From contig JAJZYZ010000005.1 in the NCBI GenBank assembly GCA_021797815.1, positions 10,469 through 74,468 of the forward strand: a DNA stretch of 64,000 nucleotides, written 5' to 3'. The notes beneath the pieces are model-generated. The model saw only the letters and a list, made by a program, of their open reading frames with translations, was not told the DNA's origin and made no database searches. Origin of the DNA: Bacillota bacterium (GTDB lineage: Bacteria; Bacillota; Sulfobacillia; Sulfobacillales; JAIMBI01). This document shows, in pieces, positions 12,259-37,609 of this stretch. A program made the position numbers and the translations under genes. Position 1 is the first letter of the stretch. Each line of letters opens with the position of its first letter.

Positions 12259-12283
12259 GACCGCAACTTCATAGCGCTTCCAC

Positions 12284-12434
12284 CTTTATCAAGACAGGCA
12301 GAGGGATCGGCCCGATGATGCCTGGGCAACCGGCGCACGACGCGTGCGGTGCCAATTCCGACGGCGAGGACGCCGACAGATGAGGGGGGAACCGGAGCCC
12401 TGCGCGCTGCGGCCCTCCTGGGGCCGCTTTTTTC
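12284..12434 (+). promoter_or_regulatory. SAM-I (S-box) riboswitch with intrinsic terminator
   Basis: CTTTATCAAGACAGGCAGAGGGATCGGCCCGATGATGCCTGGGCAACC...GGTGCCAATTCCGAC...AGATGAGG matches the S-box core. It is followed by GCGGCCC-TCCT-GGGCCGC plus TTTTTT (12408-12434). Confidence 0.85.
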
Positions 12435-12457: not shown

Positions 12458-13630
12458 ATGGGGGACGCAAGCCAGCAGACGGGCGAGTTCGAGGCCGTCT
12501 ACCGCGTGCAGGGGAGACGGCCCCTTGACGGGGACGCGGCCAGCAGCACGAAGAGTAAGCCCGCGGGCGCGCTTTCCCCGAAGGATGTCCCGACGCCTCC
12601 CGGCGGTCGGGTGCTGGAAGTTCGCGACGGGGGCGACGGGCTTTACGTGCGGGTGGCCATCCCCTTGCCGGTTCCCGCGGCTCCCGCGGCCATCGCCAAT
12701 CTTCTCCTGGGCTCGTGGACGGCGGGGTCCTGTGTGCGGATCCTGCACGTGGAGCTCCCGACGGGGCCCGCCCGGCATTTGCCCGGGCCGCGGTACGGGG
12801 TGCCGGAGCTCCGCCGGCGCCTTGCAGCCCGGTTCCGCCCCCTCCTCCTCGCTACGATCGCGGAGCCATCCGGAGGGGATCTCGACACGTGGGCCGCCAC
12901 GCTTCGCGCCGAGTGGATGGCTGGCGTCGACATCCTCGTCGAGGCGGGGGACCAGGGCCCTGCCGACTGGTCGCGTACCCAGCGCCGAATCGATCGGGCC
13001 CGACGGGAGGCCGAAGCGTTGGCACGGGATGCGGCTCGGCGGCCGCTCTACGCTGTCCGTCTCGCGGCATCGGGACCCGATTTCGCAGAGCGGGTCCGGC
13101 GTCTTGTCGACGCGGGCGCCGAAGCCCTGACGGTCGGGTGGACCGTAGGAGACCTTGATGCGCTGGCAGCGGTGGCCGCGCGTCCGGGGGGACCGGTGCT
13201 GCTGGCCGGAGCCAGGATCGCCGCACAGTCCTCGGGAGTCCTGGCGCCATCGGTGCTTTTCGGCGAGCTGGCGCGGGCCGCCGGGGCCGACGTTTCGGGA
13301 TACGCGGGTACTGGCCCCGATGGGCAGGCGGCACCGCTGTCGGCGACGGAACAGGCGTCGGTGGGTGCGGCGCTGGCCGCGCCCACAAGCCGGCGTGCCG
13401 CCTGGGCCGCGCCGTCGCTCGGCATTCATCCCGGGGCCCTTCCGACCCTTGTGCGGGAGTTGGGCCCGGACATCGTGGTAGACGCGACGGCCGCGATTCA
13501 GGACCATCCCGGAGGTCCACGGGCGGGCGCAGCCGCGTTTATCCAGGCGTTTGACCGCCTGTCCGGGAGCATCGGCCCGCTTCCGGACGAGCTGGCGCAG
13601 GCGCTCGCGCGCTGGGGGGGCGCGGCGTGA
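12458..13630 (+). CDS. Divergent RuBisCO large-subunit-like protein (type IV RLP-like) lacking canonical active-site residues
   Basis: RuBisCO-like blocks: GPRYGVPELRRRL..RPLLLATI, AGVDILVEAGD (where the family has GG-x-D-x-x-KDDE), PSLGIHPGALP and DHPGGPRAGAAAF. Start at ATG 12458 after AAAGGACGTGGGGG. Confidence 0.75.
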   Translation: MGDASQQTGEFEAVYRVQGRRPLDGDAASSTKSKPAGALSPKDVPTPPGGRVLEVRDGGDGLYVRVAIPLPVPAAPAAIANLLLGSWTAGSCVRILHVELPTGPARHLPGPRYGVPELRRRLAARFRPLLLATIAEPSGGDLDTWAATLRAEWMAGVDILVEAGDQGPADWSRTQRRIDRARREAEALARDAARRPLYAVRLAASGPDFAERVRRLVDAGAEALTVGWTVGDLDALAAVAARPGGPVLLAGARIAAQSSGVLAPSVLFGELARAAGADVSGYAGTGPDGQAAPLSATEQASVGAALAAPTSRRAAWAAPSLGIHPGALPTLVRELGPDIVVDATAAIQDHPGGPRAGAAAFIQAFDRLSGSIGPLPDELAQALARWGGAA

Positions 13631-14856
13631 TGCGAAATGTAGAGCCGGATGGGGAGCCGTCCTCATCCCTCATCGGCGGGTTACGGCTGGCCCGGCGCAT
13701 GGGGGCCCTGCCGGAGCAGTTTTTTTCGACCTTGGTGGCGAAGACCGAGGCCCGCGTCGCGGCGGGGCATGACGTCATCAATCTCGGTCAGGGAAACCCT
13801 ATCGACGAGACCCCGCCGCACATCGTGGACCGCCTCCGATCCATGGCGGGGGAGCTTCGCTACCAGCGCTACGTGCCGTTTTCCGGGCTTTCCGAATTGA
13901 AGGCTTCGGCGGCGCGCTGGTACGCCGCCCGCTACGGCGTCCAGCTTGATCCGGTGCGGGAGATCGCGATCACCATGGGCATGAAGGTTGCACTGCAAGA
14001 GATATCGCTCATGGTGTTGAATCCCGGGGAGGAAGCGCTAGTGGCCGATCCCGGTTATCCCGACTACTGGAGCGGAATCGCGCTGGCCGGTGGGATTCGG
14101 CGTTCGCTTCCGCTTCTGCCCGCCAACGGATTTCAGCCCGCATGGGATGCGGCGCCCGCGTCGCGGCTCGTGTTCTTGAACTATCCGCACAACCCGACCG
14201 GGGCCCTTGCCGGACCGGACACGTTTTCGGGAGCCGTCGCCTACGCCCGCCGCTCCGGAGCGGTCATCGTGCATGACCTCGCCTATGGCGACATCGTATT
14301 TGACGGCCGTCCGGCGACCTCCTTTCTGGCCGAGCCGGGGGCACGGGCCGTGGGCCTCGAGCTTACGTCGTTCTCAAAGTCCTACAACATGGCCGGCTGG
14401 CGGCTCGGTCTCGCGGCCGGCAGCGGCGAGCTCATCGCGGGGCTGGAGACGATCCAGGACCATCTTCATTGCAGCCAGTTCGGCGCCATTCAGCAAGCAG
14501 GCATCGCGGCTTTGGAGAGTCCGTCCGCGGTGGTCGCGGGGCAGGCTCTCCGCTATCAGAGGCGGCGGGACGCCCTTGTCGAGGGACTTCGACAGGCTGG
14601 CTGGGAGGTGGCGCCGCCAGGCGGCGGGATATTCTGCTGGGCGCCGGTACCGGCCGGGGGTGATGCGGTGACGTTCGCGAACTTCCTCCTGGAACGCGCC
14701 GATGTGGTGGTAGCGCCTGGCGTTGGCTTCGGACGGTTCGGCGCGGGATACGTCCGGCTGTCGCTGACGGCCCCGGCCGCGCGGCTTGAAGAGGCGGCCC
14801 GGCGCATCGGCGACGTGCTGCCTGCCTGGCGGGACGGCGGGTCGCCAGACGGATAG
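13627..14856 (+). CDS. Class I/II PLP-dependent aminotransferase (MtnE / LL-DAP-aminotransferase-like)
   Basis: NLGQGNP, YPHNPTG and SFSKSYNMAGWRLG (PLP lysine). The GTG start overlaps the RLP stop (GTGA). An internal start is possible. Confidence 0.88.
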   Translation: MMRNVEPDGEPSSSLIGGLRLARRMGALPEQFFSTLVAKTEARVAAGHDVINLGQGNPIDETPPHIVDRLRSMAGELRYQRYVPFSGLSELKASAARWYAARYGVQLDPVREIAITMGMKVALQEISLMVLNPGEEALVADPGYPDYWSGIALAGGIRRSLPLLPANGFQPAWDAAPASRLVFLNYPHNPTGALAGPDTFSGAVAYARRSGAVIVHDLAYGDIVFDGRPATSFLAEPGARAVGLELTSFSKSYNMAGWRLGLAAGSGELIAGLETIQDHLHCSQFGAIQQAGIAALESPSAVVAGQALRYQRRRDALVEGLRQAGWEVAPPGGGIFCWAPVPAGGDAVTFANFLLERADVVVAPGVGFGRFGAGYVRLSLTAPAARLEEAARRIGDVLPAWRDGGSPDG

Positions 14857-16408: not shown

Positions 16409-18331
16409 ATGACGGCTTCCAGCCCCACGGCCGGACCACGCCGGTTTGGCCACATTCCTTACAAATGGATCGCCCTGTCCAACACCACGCTCGGGGTGCT
16501 GATGGCCACGATCAACGGATCCATTCTGATCATCTCGCTGCCGGCTATCTTCCGGGGCCTCCAAGTGGATCCCCTGGCGGTAAATCAGACCGGCCTGTTG
16601 CTGTGGGTGCTGCTCGGCTTCAATGTGGCCACGACGATATTCCTGGTCACATTTGGCCGCATTTCTGACCAGTACGGCCGGGTCAAACTGTACAATCTCG
16701 GGTTTGCCGTCTTCACGGTCGGGTCGATCCTGTCGTTCCTCACGTGGGGACATGGACTCGCCGGCGAGTGGCAGCTCATCATCTTCCGGTTCATTCAGGG
16801 CATCGGCGGAGCGTTCTTGTTCGCCAACAGCGCGGCCATCCTGACCGACGCCTTTCCACCCAATGAAAGGGGTCTCGCGCTCGGGTTGAATCAGGTGGCG
16901 GCTATCGGCGGCGCCGTGATTGGCCTCGTGCTGGGCGGGCTTCTGTCGGCGTTGGACTGGCGCATGGTGTTCCTGGTGAGCGTGCCGGTGGGGCTTGTAG
17001 GCACCGTGTGGGCGTATGTTGCCCTGCATGAGCTGCAAACGCCGCCGGTGGAGCATCGCATCGATCTGCTTGGCAATCTCACGTTTGGGATCGGGATTCT
17101 CGCGGTGCTGGTCGGACTCACCTACGGCATCATCCCGTTCCACGCGCACACCATGGGCTGGAGCAGCCCGTTTGTCCTCAGTTCCTTGATAGGCGGCGGC
17201 GTGCTCCTGGTGGCCGCGGTGTTTGTAGAGAGCCGGGTGGCTGACCCCATGTTTCCCCTGAGTCTGTTCCGCAGCCGGCCGTTTGCGGCCGGCAATCTGG
17301 CAGGCCTCCTGGCGTCAATCGCCCGGGGTGGTCTTATGTTTATGGTCATTATCTGGCTGCAGGGCATCTGGCTTCCCCTGCACGGCGTGAGCTATGCCCA
17401 TACGCCGCTGCAGGCAGGCATCGACACGCTGCCGCAAATGGTGGGTTTCTTCATCGCGGGACCGCTGTCGGGCCGGCTGTCGGACCGCTTTGGGGCTCGT
17501 TGGTTTGGGTTTGTGGGCATGGTGGTGAGCGCGCTCGGCTTCTTCTTGCTGCAGACGCTGCCGAGCGACTTCCACTACTGGACGTTCGCGTTCGACCTGT
17601 TCATGGTGGGCCTCGGCATGGGCATCTTCGCGGCGCCTAACTCGACGGCGATTATGAATTCGGTGCCGGCGCGCCACCGCGGGGTGGCCTCGGGCATGCG
17701 CTCCACGCTGCAGAACGCGGGCATGATGATGAGCATGGGCATCTTCTTCACCATGGTCATCACGAGCCTGGCCGGCACCCTGCCGACACGGATGGCACAG
17801 GGTCTCTCGGGATTCGGCCTGCCGCTGCGGCTCGTGTCGGCAATCGCCCATCTGCCGCCGACGGAGACGCTGTTTGCGGCGCTCCTCGGGTACAACCCGA
17901 TGGCGCACCTCATTCCTCCGCAGGTGATGGGACACCTGCCGCCAGGCACGGTCCACCGGCTTTTGGGCGAGAGCTTCTTCCCGCACCTCATCTCGGCGCC
18001 GTTCCAGACGGCTCTGGACACCGTGTTCATTTTCTCGATGGTGCTGTCCCTGATCTCCGCTGTGGCCTCTCTTCTGCGCGGGCGGCGCTTCATCTACGAT
18101 GAGGAGGAGACGTCGCCGGAGCTGAGAGAGACTCCCCAGAATATGCTGGCGCTGGCCGTTATGGGAGCCTGGAACGCCCGCAGCGGCACTCGCCCGGACG
18201 CTCCTCGAGCGGATCGCGAAGCCCTTGAGCGTGCGCTGAGCCTCTTGGCGATCGTGCTGAGAGAAGGCAGGGCCGGTCATGTCGGGGACGGCGAGGCACC
18301 GACGGGAACCGATCCCCTTACCGTAAAATAG
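16409..18331 (+). CDS. MFS transporter, DHA2/EmrB-like (14-TMS type)
   Basis: Many TM segments. MFS motif A-like GRISDQYGRVK. Motif C-like FRFIQGIGGAFLFANSAAIL. Start 1 nt after the marR stop. Confidence 0.9.
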   Translation: MTASSPTAGPRRFGHIPYKWIALSNTTLGVLMATINGSILIISLPAIFRGLQVDPLAVNQTGLLLWVLLGFNVATTIFLVTFGRISDQYGRVKLYNLGFAVFTVGSILSFLTWGHGLAGEWQLIIFRFIQGIGGAFLFANSAAILTDAFPPNERGLALGLNQVAAIGGAVIGLVLGGLLSALDWRMVFLVSVPVGLVGTVWAYVALHELQTPPVEHRIDLLGNLTFGIGILAVLVGLTYGIIPFHAHTMGWSSPFVLSSLIGGGVLLVAAVFVESRVADPMFPLSLFRSRPFAAGNLAGLLASIARGGLMFMVIIWLQGIWLPLHGVSYAHTPLQAGIDTLPQMVGFFIAGPLSGRLSDRFGARWFGFVGMVVSALGFFLLQTLPSDFHYWTFAFDLFMVGLGMGIFAAPNSTAIMNSVPARHRGVASGMRSTLQNAGMMMSMGIFFTMVITSLAGTLPTRMAQGLSGFGLPLRLVSAIAHLPPTETLFAALLGYNPMAHLIPPQVMGHLPPGTVHRLLGESFFPHLISAPFQTALDTVFIFSMVLSLISAVASLLRGRRFIYDEEETSPELRETPQNMLALAVMGAWNARSGTRPDAPRADREALERALSLLAIVLREGRAGHVGDGEAPTGTDPLTVK

Positions 18332-18360
18332 CGTCCCCTCGGGCGCTGGAGGAGGCGGCG

Positions 18361-18756
18361 ATGATGTCGAAGTATCTGTGGCCGATCACCACGATGGGAC
18401 TCGTGCTGCTGATGGGAGTGGCCCTTCTGACCGCGCCGTTCGGTCTGCACTTCTATGTTTCGGGCCACCATTGGAATCACGCGACCTACTGGACCTTCTG
18501 GACCGGCGTGGGCGTGGTCGTGGTGGCAGCCGTCGGCCTCTACGGCTGGATCACCGGGATAGGCGAAGAAGGACGCCGCATCCTGCCGCCCCGGGCCGAG
18601 GCTGAGGCGACTTCCCAGGATGCACGGGCGGACGCCGGCGGCGCCGCGGCCATGAACGGGGACGAGGCCCTGCAGCAGCTGGCGCGGGCTGTCCTGCGCG
18701 ATCTTAATCAACGGCTCGGCGACGGCGGGACCGGCGCCGGCATGGGGGGGGCTTGA
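18361..18756 (+). CDS. Hypothetical small membrane protein (2 TM plus charged tail)
   Basis: Two hydrophobic helices followed by a charged tail ending ALQQLARAVLRDLNQRL. Paralogous in layout to the next ORF. Possibly SPW-repeat-like (weak). Confidence 0.55.
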   Translation: MMSKYLWPITTMGLVLLMGVALLTAPFGLHFYVSGHHWNHATYWTFWTGVGVVVVAAVGLYGWITGIGEEGRRILPPRAEAEATSQDARADAGGAAAMNGDEALQQLARAVLRDLNQRLGDGGTGAGMGGA

Positions 18757-18757
18757 C

Positions 18758-19228
18758 ATGCGGACGGGGGTTCTGGCATCCGTAATCCTTTTTCTGGCCG
18801 GCATCTGGATTGCCATCATGCCGGAGGTGGCCGGATTCCACCCTGCATCCGGCAATCCCTGGACCACACCATCACTGGTGGCGGCGGTCCTGGGCGGCGG
18901 TATCGCGATTGCCGCGCTCATCGGGCTCGTCGGCTTCTTCGGCCAGCTGCTGCGGCAGCATGAAGAGATGCTGCGTCAGGCCGCGAAAGCCCGGGAGGCA
19001 GAGGACGAGGCGCGCAAGCGGGCGCAGTCGACCGAGCCTCCCGCCGGCGGCGGTGACGGCGTCCGTGCCCTGTCGGACAGCCGGGAAGCCAGCCTGCGCC
19101 GGCTGTCGCGTGTGGAACGCGCCCAGGAGCGTACCTCCACGCGCCCCGACGACGATGCGCACGAACTTGCGTTGAAAGAACTGGCGGAGACCATCTTGAA
19201 GGACCTTCAGAAGTCTCAGGCCCATTGA
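18758..19228 (+). CDS. Hypothetical small membrane protein (2 TM plus charged tail), paralogue of preceding ORF
   Basis: Same architecture. Tail ends ALKELAETILKDLQKSQ. Start 1 nt after the previous stop. Confidence 0.55.
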   Translation: MRTGVLASVILFLAGIWIAIMPEVAGFHPASGNPWTTPSLVAAVLGGGIAIAALIGLVGFFGQLLRQHEEMLRQAAKAREAEDEARKRAQSTEPPAGGGDGVRALSDSREASLRRLSRVERAQERTSTRPDDDAHELALKELAETILKDLQKSQAH

Positions 19229-19301
19229 CACCGGCAACGGCCGCGCCGGGCGGCGGGAGCTCCCAGGTGAAGCGCTCCCGCCGCCCTGTCACGGCCGGTG
19301 A

Positions 19302-19331
19302 TTGACACCTATTGGCATCCGATGCTACGCT
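19302..19331 (+). promoter_or_regulatory. Sigma-A-type promoter for the metK leader
   Basis: TTGACA (19302-07), 18 nt, TACGCT preceded by TG. Confidence 0.45.
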
Positions 19332-19362
19332 TTTCGCCGATCGCCGGATAAAGAGTCTGGCG

Positions 19363-19509
19363 CCTCATCAAGAGAGGTGGAGGGTTCGGGCCCGATGAAG
19401 CCCGGCAACCGGAGCGTGGCTCACGGTGCTAAACCCCGCACGGCCTGGCCGTGAGGGATGAGAAGAAATGGAAATTTCGCCTCTCCCTGTGTGTGGGAGA
19501 GGTTTTTTT
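19363..19509 (+). promoter_or_regulatory. SAM-I (S-box) riboswitch with intrinsic terminator
   Basis: CCTCATCAAGAGAGGTGGAGGGTTCGGGCCCGATGAAGCCCGGCAACC...GGTGCTAAACCCCGC...GGGATGAGAAG. Terminator CTCTCCC-TGTGTG-TGGGAGAG plus TTTTTTT (19480-19509). Confidence 0.92.
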
Positions 19510-19526
19510 GTGGAGGTGGACGATTG

Positions 19527-20726
19527 ATGGGCGACGGGAAGAACCGGACCCTCTTCACGTCAGAGTCGGTGACCGAGGGCCATCCTGACAAGCTGGCCGA
19601 CCAGATCTCCGATGCGGTGCTGGACAGTCTTTTGGCGCAAGACACCGAGTCTCGGGTAGCGGTTGAGACCCTGGTCACCACCGGACTGGCCCTGGTGGCC
19701 GGTCAGGTATCGAGCGCGGGCTACACCGACATTCCCGGTGTGGTGCGCGAGGTGGTGCGCCGGGTCGGATACACCGACCCGGCCATGGGTGTGGACTGCG
19801 ACACGATGGCGGTCCTGACCAGCATCGACGAGCAGTCGAGTGACATCCGCATTGGCGTGGAGCAGGCAGTGGAGAGCCGGGCGGGAGAGGCGGACGCGCT
19901 GTCCCGGATCGGCGCGGGCGACCAGGGCATGGTGTTCGGCTACGCCTGCGAGGAGACGCCGGAGCTGATGCCGCTTCCCATCTCCCTGGCTCACCGGCTT
20001 TCGCGGCGTCTCGCCGAGGTGCGGAAGTCGGGACGCCTGCCGTTCATCTGGCCCGACGGCAAGACGCAGGTGACGGTGGCGTACGAGGACAGCCGTCCGG
20101 TGGCGGTCACGGCGGTCGTGGTGTCGACCCAGCACGCTCCGTCCGTGAGCCAGGGGGAACTTAAAGATGCGGTGCAGAGCCTGGTGATCGAGCCGGCGCT
20201 GGGCGACTGGTGGGGGAGCCACGTCCGGGTGCTGGTCAATCCCACCGGCCGCTTCGTGGTGGGGGGGCCACACGGCGACACCGGCCTTACTGGCCGCAAG
20301 ATTATCGTCGACACCTACGGCGGGATGGCCCGGCACGGGGGCGGCGCTTACTCCGGCAAGGATCCGACCAAGGTGGACCGCTCCGCCTCCTATGCTGCGC
20401 GCTGGGTGGCAAAGAACCTGGTGGCGGCCGGACTCGCCAGTCGGGCGGAAGTCCAGGTGGCCTACGCCATCGGAGTGGCCCATCCCGTCTCCGTATCGGT
20501 TGACACTTTCAAAACCGGCGCGGTGCCAGACAGCGTCCTTGCCGCCATCGTGGAACGGGTTTTCGACCTCCGTCCGCTGGCCATCATCCGAACGCTGAAG
20601 CTTGACCGGCCCATCTATCTCCCGACGGCCACCTACGGCCACTTTGGCCGCACAGATCTCGACCTGCCCTGGGAGTCGCTCGACCGGGTCGAGGCTCTGA
20701 CGCGGGAGGCGCGCCTCTCCATCTAG
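19527..20726 (+). CDS. metK: S-adenosylmethionine synthetase
   Basis: [52 protein letters not shown]. Start at ATG 19527 downstream of the riboswitch terminator. Confidence 0.97.
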
Positions 20727-27081: not shown

Positions 27082-28216
27082 ATGTTATTGAATGATGCCT
27101 TGATCCTGCGGCGCGACGAGCTCCAGGAGCTCCTCGCGCGAGTCAGGGGGTCTCTTTGACCCGGCCCAGCGCGCCACACAGATTGAACAGTTGGAGAAGG
27201 ACATGTCCCGACCGGGCTTCTGGGACAGCCCGGAGGCTGCCCAGAACCTTCTGAAGACCCTCCGTCGGGTGCGGGTGCCGCTTGACCGCTATCAGCCGCT
27301 GGCAAGACGGGTCGAAGACTTTGATGAGCTTCTGGCCCTGGCGTCGGCCGAGGATGACGCCGAAACCTTGAGGGCGCTGGAAGCCGAGGGGCAGGCTGTT
27401 CTGGAGGAGCTTCAGGACCTGGAACTCTCCCTCATCCTCACCGGACCGTACGACGCGGAGTCGGCCATCGTGACCCTCCACGCCGGCGCCGGGGGCACCG
27501 AAGCTCAGGATTGGGCCGAGATGCTGGTGAGGATGTACCTGCGCTGGGCGGAGCGCCACGACTTTGAGACCACCATTCTAGACACGCTGCCCGGGGAAGA
27601 GGCGGGAGTCAAGAGCGCGACCATAGCCGTCCGCGGCGACAACGCCTACGGCTTTTTACGCGCCGAGCGAGGGGTGCACCGCCTGGTGCGGATCTCGCCC
27701 TTTGACGCGTCCGGCCGCCGTCACACGTCGTTTGCCTCCGTAGATGTGGTGCCGGACCTGAAGGACGATGCGGAGGTGGAGATAGGCCCCGACGATCTCC
27801 GGATCGACACGTTTCGCGCCAGCGGTGCCGGGGGTCAGCACGTGAACAAGACGGAGTCTGCCATCCGCATTACCCATATCCCGTCCGGTATCGTGGTGAC
27901 CTGCCAGAACGAACGCTCCCAGCACGCCAACCGTGACACCGCCATGCGGGTCCTGCGCGGAAAGCTTGCTGAGTTGAAGGAGCTCGAACGGCAGCGAGAG
28001 ATGAACAAGATCCGCGGGGTCCAGCAGGACATAGGCTTCGGCAGTCAGATACGGTCGTATGTGTTCCAGCCCTACACCGTCGTGCGCGACCATCGTACCC
28101 GCACCGAGGTGGGGAACGTCCAGGGGGTAATGGACGGGGACATCGACCCTTTCATCCGCTCCTATCTGCAGACGGAGGCGCGGGGCGCCCTGGTGCTTGA
28201 GACACCAGGTGAGTAA
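27082..28216 (+). CDS. prfB: Peptide chain release factor 2, expressed by programmed +1 frameshift (27082-27156 joined to 27158-28216)
   Basis: Frame 0 gives MLLNDALILRRDELQELLARVRGSL then TGA. The +1 frame continues DPAQRATQIEQLEKDMSRPGFWD... with SPF (RISPFD) and GGQ (GAGGQHVNKTESAIRITH) motifs. Confidence 0.95.
27143..27160 (+). other. RF2 autoregulatory +1 frameshift site
   Basis: AGGGGG (internal SD-like) followed by TCT CTT TGA C, the canonical CTT-TGA-C shift site. Confidence 0.9.
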
Positions 28217-31631: not shown

Positions 31632-31691
31632 GGCGAAACGCTGGACAAGCCTGGTGGCTTGCGACAGGGTGGACAGGGGAGGCATACGAGT

Positions 31692-32789
31692 TTGGCGCAG
31701 GTAGAAATTCAGGGCGTTACGAAGCGCTTTGACAACGTGGTGGCTGTCGACAACGTCACCTTGACCGTCGAAGACCGTGAATTTCTGGTTCTTTTGGGTC
31801 CTTCCGGATGCGGCAAAACCACGACGCTCCGCATGGTGGCCGGTCTTGAGGATCCCACGGCCGGACGCATCGTGATTGCCGACCGCGACGTAACCTACGC
31901 GGAGCCCAAGGACCGGGACATCGCCATGGTGTTCCAGAACTATGCGCTCTACCCCCATATGACGGTTTTCGACAACATGGCCTTCGGTCTCAAGCTGCGC
32001 CGGTTCCCTCGAGATGAAATTCGGACCCGCGTCCAGGAAGCGGCCGGGATTCTTGGCCTGGAGAGTCTCTTGCATCGGCGTCCACGCGAGCTTTCAGGCG
32101 GCCAGCGCCAGCGCGTCGCCCTCGGCCGGGCCATCGTCCGCAACCCGAAGGTATTCTTGATGGACGAGCCGCTCTCCAACCTGGATGCCAAGCTCCGGGC
32201 CCAGACCCGGGTGCAGTTGAAGGCGCTCCACGAGCGTCTGCAGGCCACCGTCATCTATGTGACGCATGATCAGACGGAGGCCATGACCATGGGCACCCGC
32301 ATCGTCGTCATGCGCGACGGGGTGGTGCAGCAGGTGGACACGCCGGAGAACATTTATCATCATCCGGCAAACCAGTTTGTGGCTACCTTCGTGGGTACGC
32401 CGGCCATGAACATCCTGAATGGAACCTTGAAGCGAGCAGGCGACACCGTATCGGTGGACCTTGGCCAGGGCACCGCGGTGGCTCTCACCCCCGCGCTTGG
32501 CCGGGTGGCCGAGCACCTTACGTCTGGCGCCGCGCTCGGCATCAGGCCTGAAGACGTCTACCTCGACCGCTCGCACACGGGTGTGCCCATCGATGCGGTC
32601 GTCAGCGTCTTTGAACCCATGGGGCACGAGAACATGGTCTACCTGACGGTGGGAGACGGGCAGACGCTCATCGTCCGTGTCAACAACACGTGGCATGGGA
32701 GTCCCGGAGACCAGGTGGTGGCGATGCTGGACCCGGAGCGGATTCATGTGTTCGACCCCGAAACCGAACAGGTCCTGGCCGTCGGCTGA
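31692..32789 (+). CDS. Sugar-type ABC transporter ATP-binding protein (MalK/MsmX/UgpC-like)
   Basis: GPSGCGKTT, LSGGQRQRVALGRA, FLMDEPLSNLD, plus a C-terminal regulatory (TOBE-like) domain. TTG 31692 follows GGGGAGG. No permease or binding-protein gene is adjacent. Confidence 0.9.
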   Translation: MAQVEIQGVTKRFDNVVAVDNVTLTVEDREFLVLLGPSGCGKTTTLRMVAGLEDPTAGRIVIADRDVTYAEPKDRDIAMVFQNYALYPHMTVFDNMAFGLKLRRFPRDEIRTRVQEAAGILGLESLLHRRPRELSGGQRQRVALGRAIVRNPKVFLMDEPLSNLDAKLRAQTRVQLKALHERLQATVIYVTHDQTEAMTMGTRIVVMRDGVVQQVDTPENIYHHPANQFVATFVGTPAMNILNGTLKRAGDTVSVDLGQGTAVALTPALGRVAEHLTSGAALGIRPEDVYLDRSHTGVPIDAVVSVFEPMGHENMVYLTVGDGQTLIVRVNNTWHGSPGDQVVAMLDPERIHVFDPETEQVLAVG

Positions 32790-33471
32790 GGCGCCGCTCG
32801 CCGCCCGTATCCGGGCCTGCACGCGTTGCCCGGCCCTGGTTCGCTGCCGCAACGCGCCGGTGCCGGGAGCGGGGCCGGAGGATGCCCGCCTTATGATTGT
32901 GGGCATGGCTCCGGGCCGTCTCGGCGCCGACCGCACCGGTGTGCCTTTCCTGGGCGACCGGAGCGGAAGCCGGCTTCGAGGCGCCCTCGGTTCCGCCCTC
33001 GCCGGCGTCTACATCACGAACGCGGTGAAGTGCTCCCCAAAAACCTGTCGGTGGATGAAAGAGGCGTCCTGCAGGCCATCCCGGCATGAGATAACAGGCG
33101 GGCGCTGTCGTGTCGATGGGGTGGCCTGTCGACCGCGAAACCGCGATCCGGTGCCGGAGGAGGTCAGGAACTGCGCCCCGTACCTGAGCGAAGAAGTGAC
33201 GGTCGTGCGTCCGGTCGGCATTTTGGCCCTCGGACGCCTGGCCGAGGCAGCCGTAGACATGGCCCTCGGTCTGGTGCCGTCTCGTCGACCGCCGGGCCGA
33301 CCGACCGGTTTCCGGCCTTTTGTGGTCTATCTGCCCCATCCGGCATCCCTGCACTACCATCCAGAGTGGGATCGGACGTTTGATAGGTGGCTTTCGGAAA
33401 TCTCGGTGATGGCGGGTGTAACCCCGGCTCCCGGACATCCGTTCTACCAGGTAGAACCGGAAAGAGGGTGA
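32746..33471 (+). CDS. Uracil-DNA glycosylase, family 4/5 (Fe-S type)
   Basis: CTRCPALV, LMIVGMAPGRLGADRTGVPFLGDRSG, VYITNAVKCSP. The only canonical start (ATG 32746) overlaps the ABC gene by 44 nt, so the start is uncertain. Confidence 0.75.
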   Translation: MCSTPKPNRSWPSAEAPLAARIRACTRCPALVRCRNAPVPGAGPEDARLMIVGMAPGRLGADRTGVPFLGDRSGSRLRGALGSALAGVYITNAVKCSPKTCRWMKEASCRPSRHEITGGRCRVDGVACRPRNRDPVPEEVRNCAPYLSEEVTVVRPVGILALGRLAEAAVDMALGLVPSRRPPGRPTGFRPFVVYLPHPASLHYHPEWDRTFDRWLSEISVMAGVTPAPGHPFYQVEPERG

Positions 33472-33475
33472 ACTG

Positions 33476-33667
33476 ATGGCCGGGACCCGCCCGAAAGATC
33501 AGCGCCGTGCGGACTATTTTCTATATACCTGGCAGATTCGCGCCATCAGGCACCTGGCTGACGAACGGAGTCTACCGCCCAGTCAGGTCGTGCGCGAACT
33601 GTTGAGTCAGGCTTTGTCGGGGCCGGCGGACGCGCCGCCCGCAGTCGAGCGGGCGACCGCCCGCTAG
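33476..33667 (+). CDS. Small hypothetical protein, ribbon-helix-helix-like
   Basis: 63 aa. YFLYTWQIRAIRHLADERSLPPSQVVRELLSQAL fits a beta-strand plus two-helix pattern. Starts 4 nt after the UDG stop. Confidence 0.4.
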   Translation: MAGTRPKDQRRADYFLYTWQIRAIRHLADERSLPPSQVVRELLSQALSGPADAPPAVERATAR

Positions 33668-33719
33668 CTTGGCGCTGCCTCGGGGCCATGCGACAATCGC
33701 CGGGAAAGGCGGGTGTTGC

Positions 33720-34082
33720 ATGGCCCATTCTCGTGTCCTCCTGAACCTTACCCGCGGACCGGACGATCCCGACCGCGCGACGGTCGCGTTCGTGATGGCG
33801 AACGCGTCCGCCACCCTGGACAAGACTACGGTCGTGCTTCTGTCCACCGAAGGAGTCCGGGTTGGGGTGCCGGCCGCCATCGATGCCATCCAGGAACCAG
33901 GCTTCCTGCCGCTCCGGGAGCTTGTGGCGGCGTTTCTCGAGGCAGGCGGGGAGATCTGGGCCTGCACGCCGTGCGTGAACAAGCGGGGACTCGGGGAGCG
34001 CATGCACCCGGCCATCAAGAACGTGGGCGCGGTCGCGGCCATCGAGTTCGTGACCGATGGCGGGGTGAGCCTCTCGTTCTAG
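33720..34082 (+). CDS. DsrE/DsrF-like sulfur-relay family protein
   Basis: VLLNLTRGPDDPDRATVAFVMANAS...VVLLSTEGV...EIWACTPC...AVAAIEF. Start at ATG 33720 after GGGAAAGG. Confidence 0.72.
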   Translation: MAHSRVLLNLTRGPDDPDRATVAFVMANASATLDKTTVVLLSTEGVRVGVPAAIDAIQEPGFLPLRELVAAFLEAGGEIWACTPCVNKRGLGERMHPAIKNVGAVAAIEFVTDGGVSLSF

Positions 34083-34149
34083 ATAGGGCGTCTGCCAGGC
34101 TTTATGCCGCCTCTATTGTGGGGGCGGCGTGTCAATCGCGGCGGGAACC

Positions 34150-34473
34150 TTAGCTCCACCAGTCCCCTTCCGGCAGCGAGACGCAGTGGTCTTCCGCACG
34201 GGCGAGCACATCTTCCGCGAGACGCGGCCCGAAAAACGGGGTCCACCCCGCACCGGGAGGGTTCGCCCATGATGCCCGCGCACGCGCGAAGAGGCCCTCC
34301 CGGGCCTCTTCGCGGGCTTCCAGGGTGAGGGTGTCGCCATAGACATGGGCCACGCCCTCGCGGCACGCCGCTACGGCCCAGACCGGCTCACCCTTCGGGC
34401 CCCACTCATCCGCCAGGGGGTAGAGCCGGACCCACCGCAGCCTAGCGTCCGAGAGCTTCGATAACTGCCTCAT
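34150..34473 (-). CDS. Hypothetical protein
   Basis: ORF downstream of the peroxiredoxin. The only ATG overlaps the prx 3' end by 32 nt. No recognisable motifs. Confidence 0.3.
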   Translation of the reverse strand: MRQLSKLSDARLRWVRLYPLADEWGPKGEPVWAVAACREGVAHVYGDTLTLEAREEAREGLFARARASWANPPGAGWTPFFGPRLAEDVLARAEDHCVSLPEGDWWS

Positions 34474-34888
34474 AATGCGCCTCGTCGGTCGCGCTGAAGG
34501 CCCTGTTCTCGTACGCCACCGTTCCGTCGGGGGCGATAACGAAAGTGGACCGGGCCGCAAATCCGCCCTCTTCGTTCAGCACGCCATAGTCCCGGCTCAC
34601 CGCGCGGCGCCAGTCCGACGCGATGGGAAAGGGAAGCCCGCCGAGTTTTTCGCGAAAGGCATTCAAGGACGGCACCATGTCAACAGACATGGCCAGTATT
34701 TCCGCATTCCGATCTTTGACTCGGTCGGCGTATCCTCGCCACGAGGATAGCTCCGTGCTTCACCCGCCGGTAAAGGCCAGCGGGAAGAGGGCCAGGATGA
34801 GATGCTTGCCCGCGTAGTCAGAAAGGCTGCGGCGACCGTCGGTCGTGTCGACCGAGAATGCGGGAGCCGACTTTCCGGTGAGATCCAT
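34442..34888 (-). CDS. AhpE-type 1-Cys peroxiredoxin with in-frame TGA at the peroxidatic position (predicted selenocysteine, residue 43)
   Basis: MDLTGKSAPAFSV...LILALFPLAFTGG-TGA-STELSSWRGYADRVKDRNAEILAMSVDMVPSLNAFREKLGGLPFPIASDW...STFVIAPDGTV is one continuous frame. SD GGAGGTG before ATG 34888. TGA at 34762-34760. Confidence 0.8.
34731..34762 (-). promoter_or_regulatory. Candidate bacterial SECIS element (UGA plus downstream hairpin)
   Basis: UGA, then 10 nt (AGCACGGAGC), then a perfect 8-bp stem UAUCCUCG/CGAGGAUA with a UGG apical loop. Confidence 0.65.
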
Positions 34889-35575
34889 GTCGCACCTCCT
34901 CTCCCTATCATGCCGGATAGAGGGCGAAAATCCCAGGGGACGCATCTTGCCGAGGCTGTGGACCGCGCCGTCGGCAGTGAGGCTGCCGGCCACCGAGCGT
35001 GGGTTTCCCCAGTCACCATGCCTAAGGGACCGGCGCGGGCAGCGAAGACAGGGTGGACGCCGGGGATAGGATCGTTTGACCCCCGTGTTCCCGAGATTCA
35101 CCTTTGCGGGGTCTAAGCCTGCAGTCACGGCTGGAGTGTCCACGATCGTCGTCGGGTCCGCCGCGGCCGGACGACAACCCGCGGTTTTTCATCGTGAACC
35201 GCGTGCCGCGGGGCGCGAGGGACACCGAACAGAGCGGCTGCGTTCAGGCCGCCCCAGCATGTCCTTGGTCTCTTTTGGAAGAAGCGTCGCGCGGACTTGT
35301 CTCACGAGGCCGGACGGACCGGGCGTGCTGGCGCCGTCTCGGGTCTGCCACTCCCCTAGCGCGGGGGCCCCCTACGGCGTCCTCATCGAAAAGGTCTCCG
35401 CTCCAAAGGCACCCCGGCCCGACGGTCCGGCCGCCCGCTGGCTCCGGACCGACCGGCGGTCACGGCACGGGGGCAGTCCGCGCGACCGGAAAGGAGAATC
35501 GGACCAGAGCACGAATTGACACGAAACGACGGATTTCGGGCGCCAAAAGCGACACGCGCGAGCCCGACGTCGCTC

Positions 35576-35611
35576 ATAAAAAACAGGGGCGGACCCGGGC
35601 GCGGTCCGGCC
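35576..35611 (-). terminator. Terminator-like hairpin plus T-run, oriented on the minus strand
   Basis: Minus strand reads GGCCGGACC-GCGCCCG-GGTCCGCCCC then TGTTTTTTAT. No annotated minus-strand gene lies upstream of it. Confidence 0.45.
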
Positions 35612-35757
35612 ACGGCCCCACAAGATTCCACTCCTGGCTTCAGTAAATCAACAGGAGTTGTTCCCTCAATGACGAAGTGTGGCCGAGACAGGTGATCGGA
35701 ATAGCAGATCGGGTGTCGGGCTACGGTGCGGCTGCCTCGAGATGATTGGGGCAGATG

Positions 35758-35815
35758 AATGAGAGACGCGCGAACGTGCTCAGACCGAGCATCTCGTTTG
35801 GAGTCTCGTCTCATT
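35758..35815 (+). promoter_or_regulatory. Long imperfect hairpin in the 5' leader, immediately upstream of the SD of the binding-protein gene
   Basis: AATGAGAGAC..CGAACG..TGCTC-AGACC-GAGCA..CGTTTG..GTCTC.TCTCATT. The SD AGGAGG starts 7 nt after the 3' arm. Confidence 0.4.
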
Positions 35816-35833
35816 AGAGCCAGGAGGTGCCAC

Positions 35834-37609
35834 TTGAAGCACTGGAACATCTTCCGATTCACAAGGGGAGGCGTGCTCCGATCCCCCGGACGCCGCGTAC
35901 GCGCGTTGGTGCTGGGGGTCGTGGGCGTGTCGATGCTGGCGCTGGCCGGGTGCGGAGCCGGTCCGGTATCGAGTGCGTCGGCATCCCACCCGAGCGCGCT
36001 CAACATCGCGATGTACCCGCAGACGGACGTCACATGGTGGCCGCCGCTGATCCCGGCCAACAACTGCGGCACCGTGACCGGCGGCCCCGGTGGCGGTATG
36101 TGGACCTATGTGCCGCTCCTCATGATGAACAGCGCGGCGCAGATTGACTACAGTCAGTCGATCGCCCAAAAGGTCACGTACAACAAGAGCGGCACGGTCT
36201 ACGTCGTGCACCTGAACCCCAAGTGGCACTGGTCAAACGGCCAGCCGGTCACGGCGCAGGACGCCGCCTACTGGTTTACGCTCGCCAAGGCAGCCAGCAA
36301 CACGAACGCGCCGATCTTCTACTGCTACGCGGGAACCGGCGGCGTGCCGACGGCCTACAAGTCGGTGCAGGCCACCAGCACGTACACGCTCACCATCACG
36401 ACCACGGGTCCAGAAAACCCCCAGTGGTTCATCTACAACAGCATCGCGCAGTTCATCCCGCTCCCGAAGGCGCAGTGGGACCACTCCAGCAATCCCACCA
36501 CGGAGCTCAACTGGATCAAGTCGATCTCCAACTCCCCGACCAATTCCGTATACCAGGTCACTGACGGCGCCTATCTGTTCAAAAAGGCCGTCACCGACCA
36601 GTACTACGAGTTCGTGGCCAACCCCAACTTCGACGGCAGCCCGAAGCCCCAAATCAAGAAGGTGTACTACGACTACGAAACGTCGTACTCATCCATCTTC
36701 GCCGCGCTGAAGAAGGGCGCCGTGCAGTACGCGCCCTACGACAGCACGCTGTGGGCCGACCGGGCTCAGCTCACGAACGACACCATCCTGTCTACACCGC
36801 AGTACGGGTTCTACTATGCGCTGACGGACTTCGAGAAGAACGCGCAGACGGTGGGACCGCTGTTCCAGAATCTGGCCGTCCGGCAGGCGATGCAGTACGG
36901 CATCAATCAGCCGGCCATCATCAAGGACTTCTACTACGGCCAGGCGACGCCGACGTACGCGCCGGTGCCCAGGATCGCCTCGTGGTACGACAAGTCCCTG
37001 CAGAACCCGTACCCGTTCAATCTGGCCAAGGGCAAGGCCGTCCTGGAAGCTAACGGATGGCACATGGTCAACGGCGTGATGGAGAAGAACGGCCAGCAGT
37101 TGAAGTTCCAGGCCCTCCTGCCGACGGGAGCGCCGGTGCTGCTCCACATCGCCGAGTATGAACAGGCCGAGTGGGCGAAAGAGGGCATCTCGGTCAGCCT
37201 GAAGACGCTCAGTCTCGACGCGTTCATTTCCATCATCGGGGCCAACCCCGCGACCGCGCCGAAATGGGCGTTCGCGTTCGGGGCGGAGTGGTTCTACATC
37301 CCGGACTACTTCCCGAGCGGTGACGGGCTTGTGAGCACGAACGGCGGCTACAACTTCGACTACTACAACAACTCGACGGCTCCCGACCCGCACATGACGG
37401 CGCTCATCAACAAGCTCACCGGACCCGCCACCCTGGCCCAGACCCGGCAGGCGTTCTACCAGTACGAGCACTACGCGGCCCACCAGCTGCCGATGCTGTA
37501 CTTCCCGACGCCCACCGCCCTGACCGCGGTATCGACGAGTCTTGGTGGGATGAAGTCCTACAACGACCTCTACAGCGAGACCAACGTCCAGAACCTCTAC
37601 TGGAAGTAA
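35834..37609 (+). CDS. ABC transporter substrate-binding lipoprotein, family 5 (peptide/nickel/opine type)
   Basis: Lipobox LALAGCG after a basic N-terminus. About 590-aa mature domain with SBP_bac_5-like composition. TTG 35834 follows AGGAGG. No permease genes are adjacent. Confidence 0.85.
   Translation: MKHWNIFRFTRGGVLRSPGRRVRALVLGVVGVSMLALAGCGAGPVSSASASHPSALNIAMYPQTDVTWWPPLIPANNCGTVTGGPGGGMWTYVPLLMMNSAAQIDYSQSIAQKVTYNKSGTVYVVHLNPKWHWSNGQPVTAQDAAYWFTLAKAASNTNAPIFYCYAGTGGVPTAYKSVQATSTYTLTITTTGPENPQWFIYNSIAQFIPLPKAQWDHSSNPTTELNWIKSISNSPTNSVYQVTDGAYLFKKAVTDQYYEFVANPNFDGSPKPQIKKVYYDYETSYSSIFAALKKGAVQYAPYDSTLWADRAQLTNDTILSTPQYGFYYALTDFEKNAQTVGPLFQNLAVRQAMQYGINQPAIIKDFYYGQATPTYAPVPRIASWYDKSLQNPYPFNLAKGKAVLEANGWHMVNGVMEKNGQQLKFQALLPTGAPVLLHIAEYEQAEWAKEGISVSLKTLSLDAFISIIGANPATAPKWAFAFGAEWFYIPDYFPSGDGLVSTNGGYNFDYYNNSTAPDPHMTALINKLTGPATLAQTRQAFYQYEHYAAHQLPMLYFPTPTALTAVSTSLGGMKSYNDLYSETNVQNLYWK

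Follow-up and report, generated by a model that had tools for sequence, protein, structure and literature searches.

The 64-kb window analysed here, a whole stretch of 64,000 nucleotides, very probably contains an unannotated gene for a selenocysteine (Sec) peroxiredoxin, in which a UGA codon stands at the peroxidatic position and is followed by a minimal, strongly conserved selenocysteine insertion sequence (SECIS) hairpin. This conclusion is drawn from comparative sequence analysis, and we infer that Sec is actually inserted at the UGA and that selABCD are present in the genome. The parts of the gene are as follows:

Minus strand, 34442..34888: putative Sec-peroxiredoxin coding sequence of 148 residues (147 sense codons and the UGA-Sec codon 43, followed by TAG)
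Minus strand, 34893..34899: Shine-Dalgarno (SD) sequence GGAGGTG, 4 nt 5' of the ATG at 34888
Minus strand, 34760..34762: in-frame UGA (codon 43), candidate Sec codon at the peroxidatic position
Minus strand, 34731..34749: SECIS-like hairpin with an 8-bp stem, a UGG apical loop, and a 10-nt spacer after the UGA

The frame 34888..34442, from the ATG start codon (34888-34886) to the TAG stop codon (34444-34442) on the minus strand, is open except for one TGA at 34762-34760. Two listed open reading frames (ORFs), 34760..35143 and 34442..34690, share this frame and are two pieces of one gene. This had been proposed in an earlier interpretation made from the letters alone (the sequence-only reading), which had also pointed to the SD sequence before the ATG, found here at 34899-34893. 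The read-through product is MDLTGKSAPAFSVDTTDGRRSLSDYAGKHLILALFPLAFTGG-U-STELSSWRGY...EALGR. The PxxxTxx[C/U] motif appears in this protein as P36-L-A-F-T40-G-G-U43, and the catalytic set of Pro36, Thr40, Sec43 (UGA), and Arg113 is intact. The cysteine count of the protein is zero, suggesting a '1-Sec' enzyme that would depend on a reductant from outside. In a 99% relative (L010), an R79C polymorphism, seen in one assembly, gives the sole cysteine of the otherwise cysteine-free peroxiredoxin. All of the public records inspected carry the gene in split form, as an ORF of 41-47 amino acids and another of 82-105 amino acids, which is the fate at the hands of automated callers that had been predicted for it.

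The product belongs to the peroxiredoxins. It matched the Pfam family AhpC-TSA (PF00578) at 1.4e-30, with residues 5-126 aligned to profile positions 2-123 of 124, and the Pfam family Redoxin at 3e-21. The best peroxiredoxin match in the PDB was 3.6e-17 when the single sequence was used and 5.9e-46 when a family profile was used. In the alignment with solved peroxiredoxins, the TGA falls on the peroxidatic Cys (FTFVCPTE versus FTGG*STE), in agreement with the sequence-only reading. The full-length homologues examined (35-45% identity) have about 155 amino acids and are annotated as peroxiredoxin, as mycoredoxin-dependent, or as BCP. In 15/15 of them a Cys stands at the TGA column, within the block FPLAFTGxCTxEL. 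The nearest Cys homologues of the window protein are only 35-48% identical to it. Pro36, Thr40, and Arg113 are invariant in the homologue alignment. Cys was also found at the TGA column in 20 distant metagenomic relatives, so that the Cys/Sec pairing looked for among orthologues was observed in both sets. The relatives obtained in the metagenome scan were only 28-38% identical and all of the Cys type, and were of no use for covariation. A distant Cys-type homologue on two JGI contigs (L032, 2385-2784, and L033, 3001-3400) was recovered in the form of two tblastn segments that overlap and lie in different frames, which suggests a frameshift or an assembly error.

The UGA is conserved in the relatives of the window. 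Five lineages were compared, namely the window, L003, L009, L047, and L048/L049, with protein identities of 54-90%. In a search of 5.8 billion proteins, the three closest relatives were all C-terminal fragments of 82 amino acids, indicating a break at the same point in every one of these genes, and their DNA showed the same TGA. Two more divergent lineages, L047 and L048/L049, were recovered using a small orphan ORF downstream of the peroxiredoxin gene (described below) as a marker, and here too a TGA at this codon divides the peroxiredoxin. The TGA is kept at codon 43 down to 54-62% protein identity. Each of the five lineages has one in-frame stop, located at codon 43, and no internal indel. 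Substitutions occur mostly at third codon positions, both before and after the TGA (11/10/48 for the three codon positions against L003 and 21/21/75 against L009), and this pattern indicates that both halves of the gene are under purifying selection.

The same sequence recurs in a large number of assemblies. The C-terminal ORF of the window, with 82 amino acids, is indexed in 35 assembly blocks, and that of a relative with 90% identity in 42, among them seven NCBI metagenome-assembled genomes (MAGs). MAGs with the gene are GCA_027419765.1, GCA_027419575.1, GCA_027419715.1, GCA_027419515.1, GCA_027419815.1, GCA_027419865.1, and GCA_021818685.1. The TGA and the hairpin were present in 17/17 loci fetched (L001-L017), and their occurrence in many independent assemblies excludes a sequencing error. 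When the GTDB species representatives were scanned with the alignment of the Sec clade, there was 1 match in 185,579 ('MAG: Bacillota bacterium YP2.bin78'). The Sec peroxiredoxin thus appears to be confined to a small uncultured clade.

The sequence-only reading had also described a perfect 8-bp hairpin 10 nt after the TGA, with the spacing and the G-containing loop of a SECIS, and this description is borne out both by the comparison with the bacterial SECIS (bSECIS) model and by covariation. The hairpin, UAUCCUCG-UGG-CGAGGAUA, occupies 34749-34731. Its UGG apical loop is the Trp50 codon and corresponds to nt 22-24 counted from the U of the UGA. Folded alone, it has a free energy of -9.1 kcal/mol (z = -4.1 versus shuffles). 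Perfect 8-bp hairpins occur in the window at 4.7e-4 per nt, and the expected frequency of one that starts 8-14 nt beyond a given TGA is about 0.3%. The bSECIS model, as outlined in PMC13188914 (legend of its Fig. 2), has a loop of 3-9 nt and a stem of 4-16 bp, a G within the first two loop positions that is usually followed by G or U, a distance of 16-37 nt from the UGA to the loop, and a minimum free energy of -7.5 kcal/mol or lower. The window hairpin agrees with this model in 4/4 criteria, with a 3-nt loop and an 8-bp stem, a G at loop position 2 with a second G directly after it, a distance of 18 nt, and -9.1 kcal/mol. Other coincidences of a TGA with a hairpin in the window were out of frame or intergenic, and the other TGA-interrupted coding regions in the window were antisense-frame artefacts only.

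Conservation of the hairpin was evident at the nucleotide level. In the alignment of four lineages, the hairpin block forms the longest invariant run, with 26 nt versus 13 nt for the next one (P ~0.006 for random placement). None of its degenerate codons (0/7) showed a synonymous change, versus a background of 54% elsewhere in the gene (78% relative; P = 0.004). In L048, the stem is UGACCUCG-UGG-CGAGGUCA. Two pairs are changed there on both sides (A-U to G-C, and U-A to A-U), which entails two amino acid replacements. The loop, the 10-nt spacer, and the five apical pairs are unchanged. Pairing in the hairpin alignment was 100% with 2 compensatory pairs, whereas slid controls gave 0 compensatory pairs and 25-72% pairing, and RNAalifold independently predicted the same helix. 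The hairpin encodes ELSSWRGY, a sequence absent from the Cys homologues, which have ELCSFxDD at this place, and it uses rare codons (CTA, 1.4% of Leu codons; CGA, 7% of Arg codons), suggesting that the RNA element constrains the protein there. These comparisons indicate that the hairpin is under selection at the RNA level.

Several observations weigh against the Sec interpretation. The covariation comes from one divergent lineage and represents one evolutionary event over two pairs, and its shuffle control was modest (17/500). Rfam gave no family at the site, either in the whole window at gathering thresholds or in 34600-34900 at E<=10, it being not established that Rfam includes a bacterial SECIS model. 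A covariance model found no second copy of the UGA and hairpin in 241 kb, and no second selenoprotein gene was found in the 241 kb of DNA examined. Pfam annotation of the predicted genes, taken from precomputed Pfam tables for the central ~20 kb, and look-ups beyond the ends did not find selA, selB, selD, or tRNA-Sec in the 64-kb window or in the 10 kb beyond each of its ends, and these genes were likewise not found in the other loci examined. With ARAGORN, neither the window nor any of 18 loci gave a tRNA, hence no tRNA-Sec there. The main caveat is that the search for the Sec machinery covers 84 kb, which is part of the genome only.

The identity of the host bears on this question. The window contains the atp operon, a two-component system, MtnW, metK, secA, prfB, uvrABC, rapZ, and yvcK, and beyond its ends lie rho, prfA, and whiA-nuo. 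SecA shares 70-73% identity with the proteins of Sulfobacillus species and of a Thermaerobacter MAG, suggesting that the window comes from an uncultured high-GC Bacillota lineage near Sulfobacillus. Sec-containing formate dehydrogenases have been reported for every Sulfobacillus genome (PMC4378227), and a Sec-peroxiredoxin is among the 12 selenoproteins of Symbiobacterium thermophilum, another member of the high-GC Bacillota (PMC1794560). By analogy with these relatives, the Sec trait is plausible for the host.

A global reassignment of UGA, as in the Trp or Gly codes, was considered and rejected, because TGA ends 25/63 predicted genes, including secA, and the frameshift site of release factor 2 (RF2) is present. 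The prfB gene starts with the ATG at 27082, which is followed by an SD-like AGGGGG. Its frameshift site reads AGGGGG-TCT-CTT-TGA-C, with CTT-TGA-C at 27154-27160 and the UGA as codon 26:

Plus strand, 27082-27160: canonical +1 frameshift region of prfB (RF2), continuing into prfB at 27191-28216

The window thus has another UGA recoding event, a well-known one, and mechanical ORF lists and some callers shorten the prfB product (337-341 amino acids).

The alternative that survives best is that the UGA is read through without Sec, the hairpin stimulating a near-cognate Trp or Cys tRNA or slowing RF2 in a host whose Sec machinery is absent or was lost. Downstream hairpins are generally able to stimulate readthrough, and the result that no Sec machinery genes occur in the 84 kb would fit such a case. 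However, a Trp at the peroxidatic position would leave the enzyme catalytically dead, and if Cys were useful there, TGC or TGT would be only one mutation away and far more efficient, whereas five lineages, across a protein divergence of about 40%, have retained the TGA. Moreover, the geometry of the hairpin is an exact match to the SelB-dependent model, and neighbouring taxa use Sec. We consider this explanation highly unlikely.

Less probable still, to the point of being very remote, is an arrangement in which the hairpin is a DNA palindrome for a dimeric regulator, or another RNA element, and the locus gives a peptide of 42 amino acids and a re-initiated C-terminal fragment. The element is indeed a perfect DNA palindrome, in which symmetric half-site changes would also appear compensatory, and it has no G-U pairs to tell RNA from DNA; callers also find a start codon for the second ORF. 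However, callers start the second ORF of the window at Met67, a position occupied by Cys in L047 and L048, which indicates that there is no conserved re-initiation codon, and codons 44-66 are open and in frame in all lineages. Neither fragment would have a functional active site, as T40 and R113 are on opposite sides of the break, and coincidence would have to account for the constant 10-nt spacing from an in-frame UGA that falls on the catalytic codon. The Cys of L047 and L048 lies in the sequence A-C-S-V-D.

The public annotations do all give two ORFs, but a pseudogene that arose through a nonsense mutation, or an error of sequencing or assembly, is effectively refuted, since the identical TGA occurs in dozens of independent assemblies and seven MAGs, the five lineages show a strong third-position bias on both sides with no further disruption, and the nonsense codon would have to fall exactly on the residue where Sec is known to replace Cys. 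The sequence-only reading had argued against a decaying pseudogene and in favour of a probable selenoprotein; both views are upheld, the former by the intact frames and the purifying selection on both halves in five lineages, and the latter by the conservation of the UGA, the Sec/Cys pairing, and the hairpin.

For the Sec peroxiredoxin, the following mechanism is proposed. The UGA at codon 43 would be recoded as Sec during translation, and the hairpin 10 nt after it would act as a bacterial SECIS. This element would bring SelB-GTP-Sec-tRNA(Sec) to the ribosome as a competitor of RF2 and thereby permit synthesis of the full-length enzyme. The selenolate, placed by Pro36, Thr40, and Arg113, would reduce peroxides and be converted to a selenenic acid. 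Since the protein is free of cysteine, we infer that the selenenic acid is recycled by an external thiol, which may be thioredoxin or a low-molecular-weight thiol. More speculatively, the recycling might be performed by an orphan protein with a His-Cys tail or by a CxxC DsrE-like protein, both encoded next to the peroxiredoxin gene:

Minus strand, 34150..34473: orphan ORF of 107 amino acids, co-oriented and 3' of the peroxiredoxin gene, with a 32-nt overlap with its 3' end
Plus strand, 33720..34082: convergent DsrE-like gene of 120 amino acids (Pfam DsrE, 7e-9)

The order of the peroxiredoxin gene, the overlapping small ORF, and the convergent DsrE-like gene is kept in all five lineages. The orphan protein has 98-125 amino acids across the lineages and is translationally coupled to the Sec peroxiredoxin in each of them. 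In the relatives, it is encoded at the following positions:

L003, 10218-10577: orphan ORF
L009, 664-1041: orphan ORF
L047, 737-1033: orphan ORF
L048, 5001-5303: orphan ORF

The protein ends in an invariant H-C-V-[S/A]-x-P-x-x-x-W-W motif and contains a further motif, LYP..DEWGPKG.P. It had no match in Pfam or NCBIfam, and its family is small, with 2 clusters in a word-index search and 5 representatives among 1.84 billion proteins. An AlphaFold2 model was obtained with a predicted local distance difference test (pLDDT) score of 80 and a predicted template modelling score of 0.71, the C-terminal tail being of low confidence. This model gave no fold match in the PDB (best E 0.8); an earlier one, with a pLDDT of 52, was too poor and was not used. 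The DsrE-like protein shows 68-87% identity across the lineages and contains an invariant WACTPCV (CxxC). DsrE-like proteins are a known selenoprotein family, and the member in the window has Cys.

The orphan ORF is a candidate partner of the peroxiredoxin. As a much more tentative extension, which we regard as rather unlikely, the three genes might constitute an undescribed redox module, composed of the Sec peroxiredoxin as the catalytic head, the orphan protein (apparently a new fold, with His-Cys on a flexible-looking tail), and the CxxC DsrE-like protein. In such a module, the Cys of the orphan protein would be the resolving or recycling thiol for the peroxiredoxin, and electrons would pass onward through the CxxC of the DsrE-like protein. 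If this were true, the module would be a dedicated selenium-based relay for the detoxification of peroxide (or of persulfide or polysulfide) that occurs only in a small Sulfobacillus-related clade of Bacillota.

The locus itself is variable. No peroxiredoxin homologue was found in the syntenic regions of L042-L044, whose SecA identity is 74-80%, and the whole block is missing there, suggesting a lineage-specific insertion near fumC; these regions thus provided no close Cys orthologue. The block (about 31659-37609) is situated between pfkB and fumC and contains a MalK-like ABC ATPase, UDG, the DsrE-like gene, the orphan ORF, the Sec peroxiredoxin, and SBP_bac_5. In L043, with a SecA identity of 74%, its place at 16791-20409 is taken by a gene for an IU-nucleoside hydrolase and by an ORF of 83 amino acids, and in L048 the peroxiredoxin module directly adjoins fumC. 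The module has the appearance of an insertion, mobile or variable, near fumC.

An unusually long gene-free stretch of about 870 bp (34889-35758) separates the start of the peroxiredoxin gene from the divergent SBP_bac_5 gene. About 55 nt around the SD sequence and the ATG are kept in L003. The remaining intergenic region is not kept, except for a block near the SBP gene (TTGATTTACTGAAG...GTGGAATCTTG), and about 330 nt of the window are missing in L003. The interval contains one terminator-like hairpin, at 35608-35590 on the minus strand. Rfam gave no match in 34889-35758, and a promoter scan upstream of the peroxiredoxin gene found nothing.

Elsewhere in the window, two S-adenosylmethionine (S-box) riboswitches are located on the plus strand, at 12283-12386 and 19362-19464. 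The first precedes the gene for a divergent RuBisCO-like protein (MtnW-type 2,3-diketo-5-methylthiopentyl-1-phosphate enolase), which matched NCBIfam at 1.3e-40, had no Pfam match at 1e-5, and is coupled to a class I/II aminotransferase gene at 13627-14856. The second precedes metK (19458-20726).

These results correct the annotation of the locus, as the split ORFs are meaningless singly and the cut-off is reached with none of the curated NCBIfam models. This uncultured lineage is thus likely to have more selenoproteins than are counted for it. A compact, cysteine-free '1-Sec' enzyme of the AhpE/BCP-like type would join the Sec-peroxiredoxins, and it would be a natural test case for the part played by selenium in peroxiredoxin catalysis and in resistance to over-oxidation. 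The simple and highly conserved SECIS, with its 8-bp stem and UGG triloop, may be a minimal element for SelB recognition in high-GC Bacillota. In addition, an unexplored route of recycling is suggested by the two neighbours that are conserved beside the gene, namely the orphan protein with His-Cys and the DsrE-like protein with CxxC.

Regarding the class of the enzyme, the family profile scored highest with archaeal peroxiredoxins of the BCP/PrxQ type, from 5.9e-46 (3hjp, Bcp4) to 1.7e-41, followed by Mycobacterium tuberculosis AhpE at about 5e-39, and Prx1/AhpC types scored well below both. The AhpE-type assignment of the sequence-only reading therefore holds only approximately. The absence of Cys is consistent with a 1-Cys/1-Sec mechanism, but the archaeal BCP/PrxQ type scored slightly higher, and AhpE/BCP-like is a fair label, the sequence scores being not decisive between AhpE and BCP. 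The window protein is similar to AhpE (Rv2238c, PDB 1xxu/4x0x) and to archaeal BCP/PrxQ (3hjp, 2ywn, 2cx3) in its size of about 150 amino acids, in the block FPLAFTG-x-[C/U]-x-x-EL, and in the conserved Arg of R-S-x-F-V-I. AhpE also lacks a resolving Cys. The difference lies in the peroxidatic residue, which is Cys in AhpE and BCP and UGA/Sec in the window protein.

Sec-peroxiredoxins with the motif PxxxTxxU are an established family of prokaryotic selenoproteins (PMC13188914), whose prototype is PrxU of Eubacterium acidaminophilum (Sohling et al., 2001, as given in PMC13188914 and PMC1794560). The window protein has in common with this family the AhpC/TSA fold and, as predicted from the UGA, the use of Sec for the peroxidatic Cys in P-x-x-x-T-x-x-U. 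In both, the UGA is followed by an in-frame hairpin within the coding region, and the family occurs in Bacillota among other phyla. However, the window protein is much shorter than PrxU (148 amino acids versus a model of 233 positions), AhpE/BCP-like, and cysteine-free (1-Sec). The PrxU equivalog NF040737 was rejected as a label, with 62.8 bits versus a cut-off of 270 and a match restricted to model positions 39-169 of 233. The model for Prx-SUH (NF045827) was also rejected, with 49.5 bits versus a cut-off of 298 and a motif that is TxxU here and not CxxU. Prx-SUH, the Prx-like thiol:disulfide oxidoreductase with UxxC, and PRX_like2 with UxxS are, like the window protein, thioredoxin-fold redox selenoproteins predicted by the Sec/Cys-pair approach. 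Their CxxU, UxxC, and UxxS motifs differ from the TxxU motif of the window protein (T-G-G-U-S-T-E).

The hairpin was also compared with the SECIS of E. coli fdhF, the sequence of which was confirmed against 5,419 genomes and then folded beside it. Both hairpins lie directly 3' of the UGA inside the coding region, and in both, counting from the U of the UGA, nt 22 is the first of the apical loop. Both also have, as in the bSECIS model, a G within the first two loop positions that is followed by G or U. In contrast, the loop is UGG (3 nt) in the window and GGUC in fdhF, the window stem has 8 bp without a mismatch whereas the fdhF stem is interrupted in the folds, and there is no sequence similarity between them. 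The Sec-peroxiredoxin family being already established, the window gene adds an unannotated member to it and overturns no current understanding.

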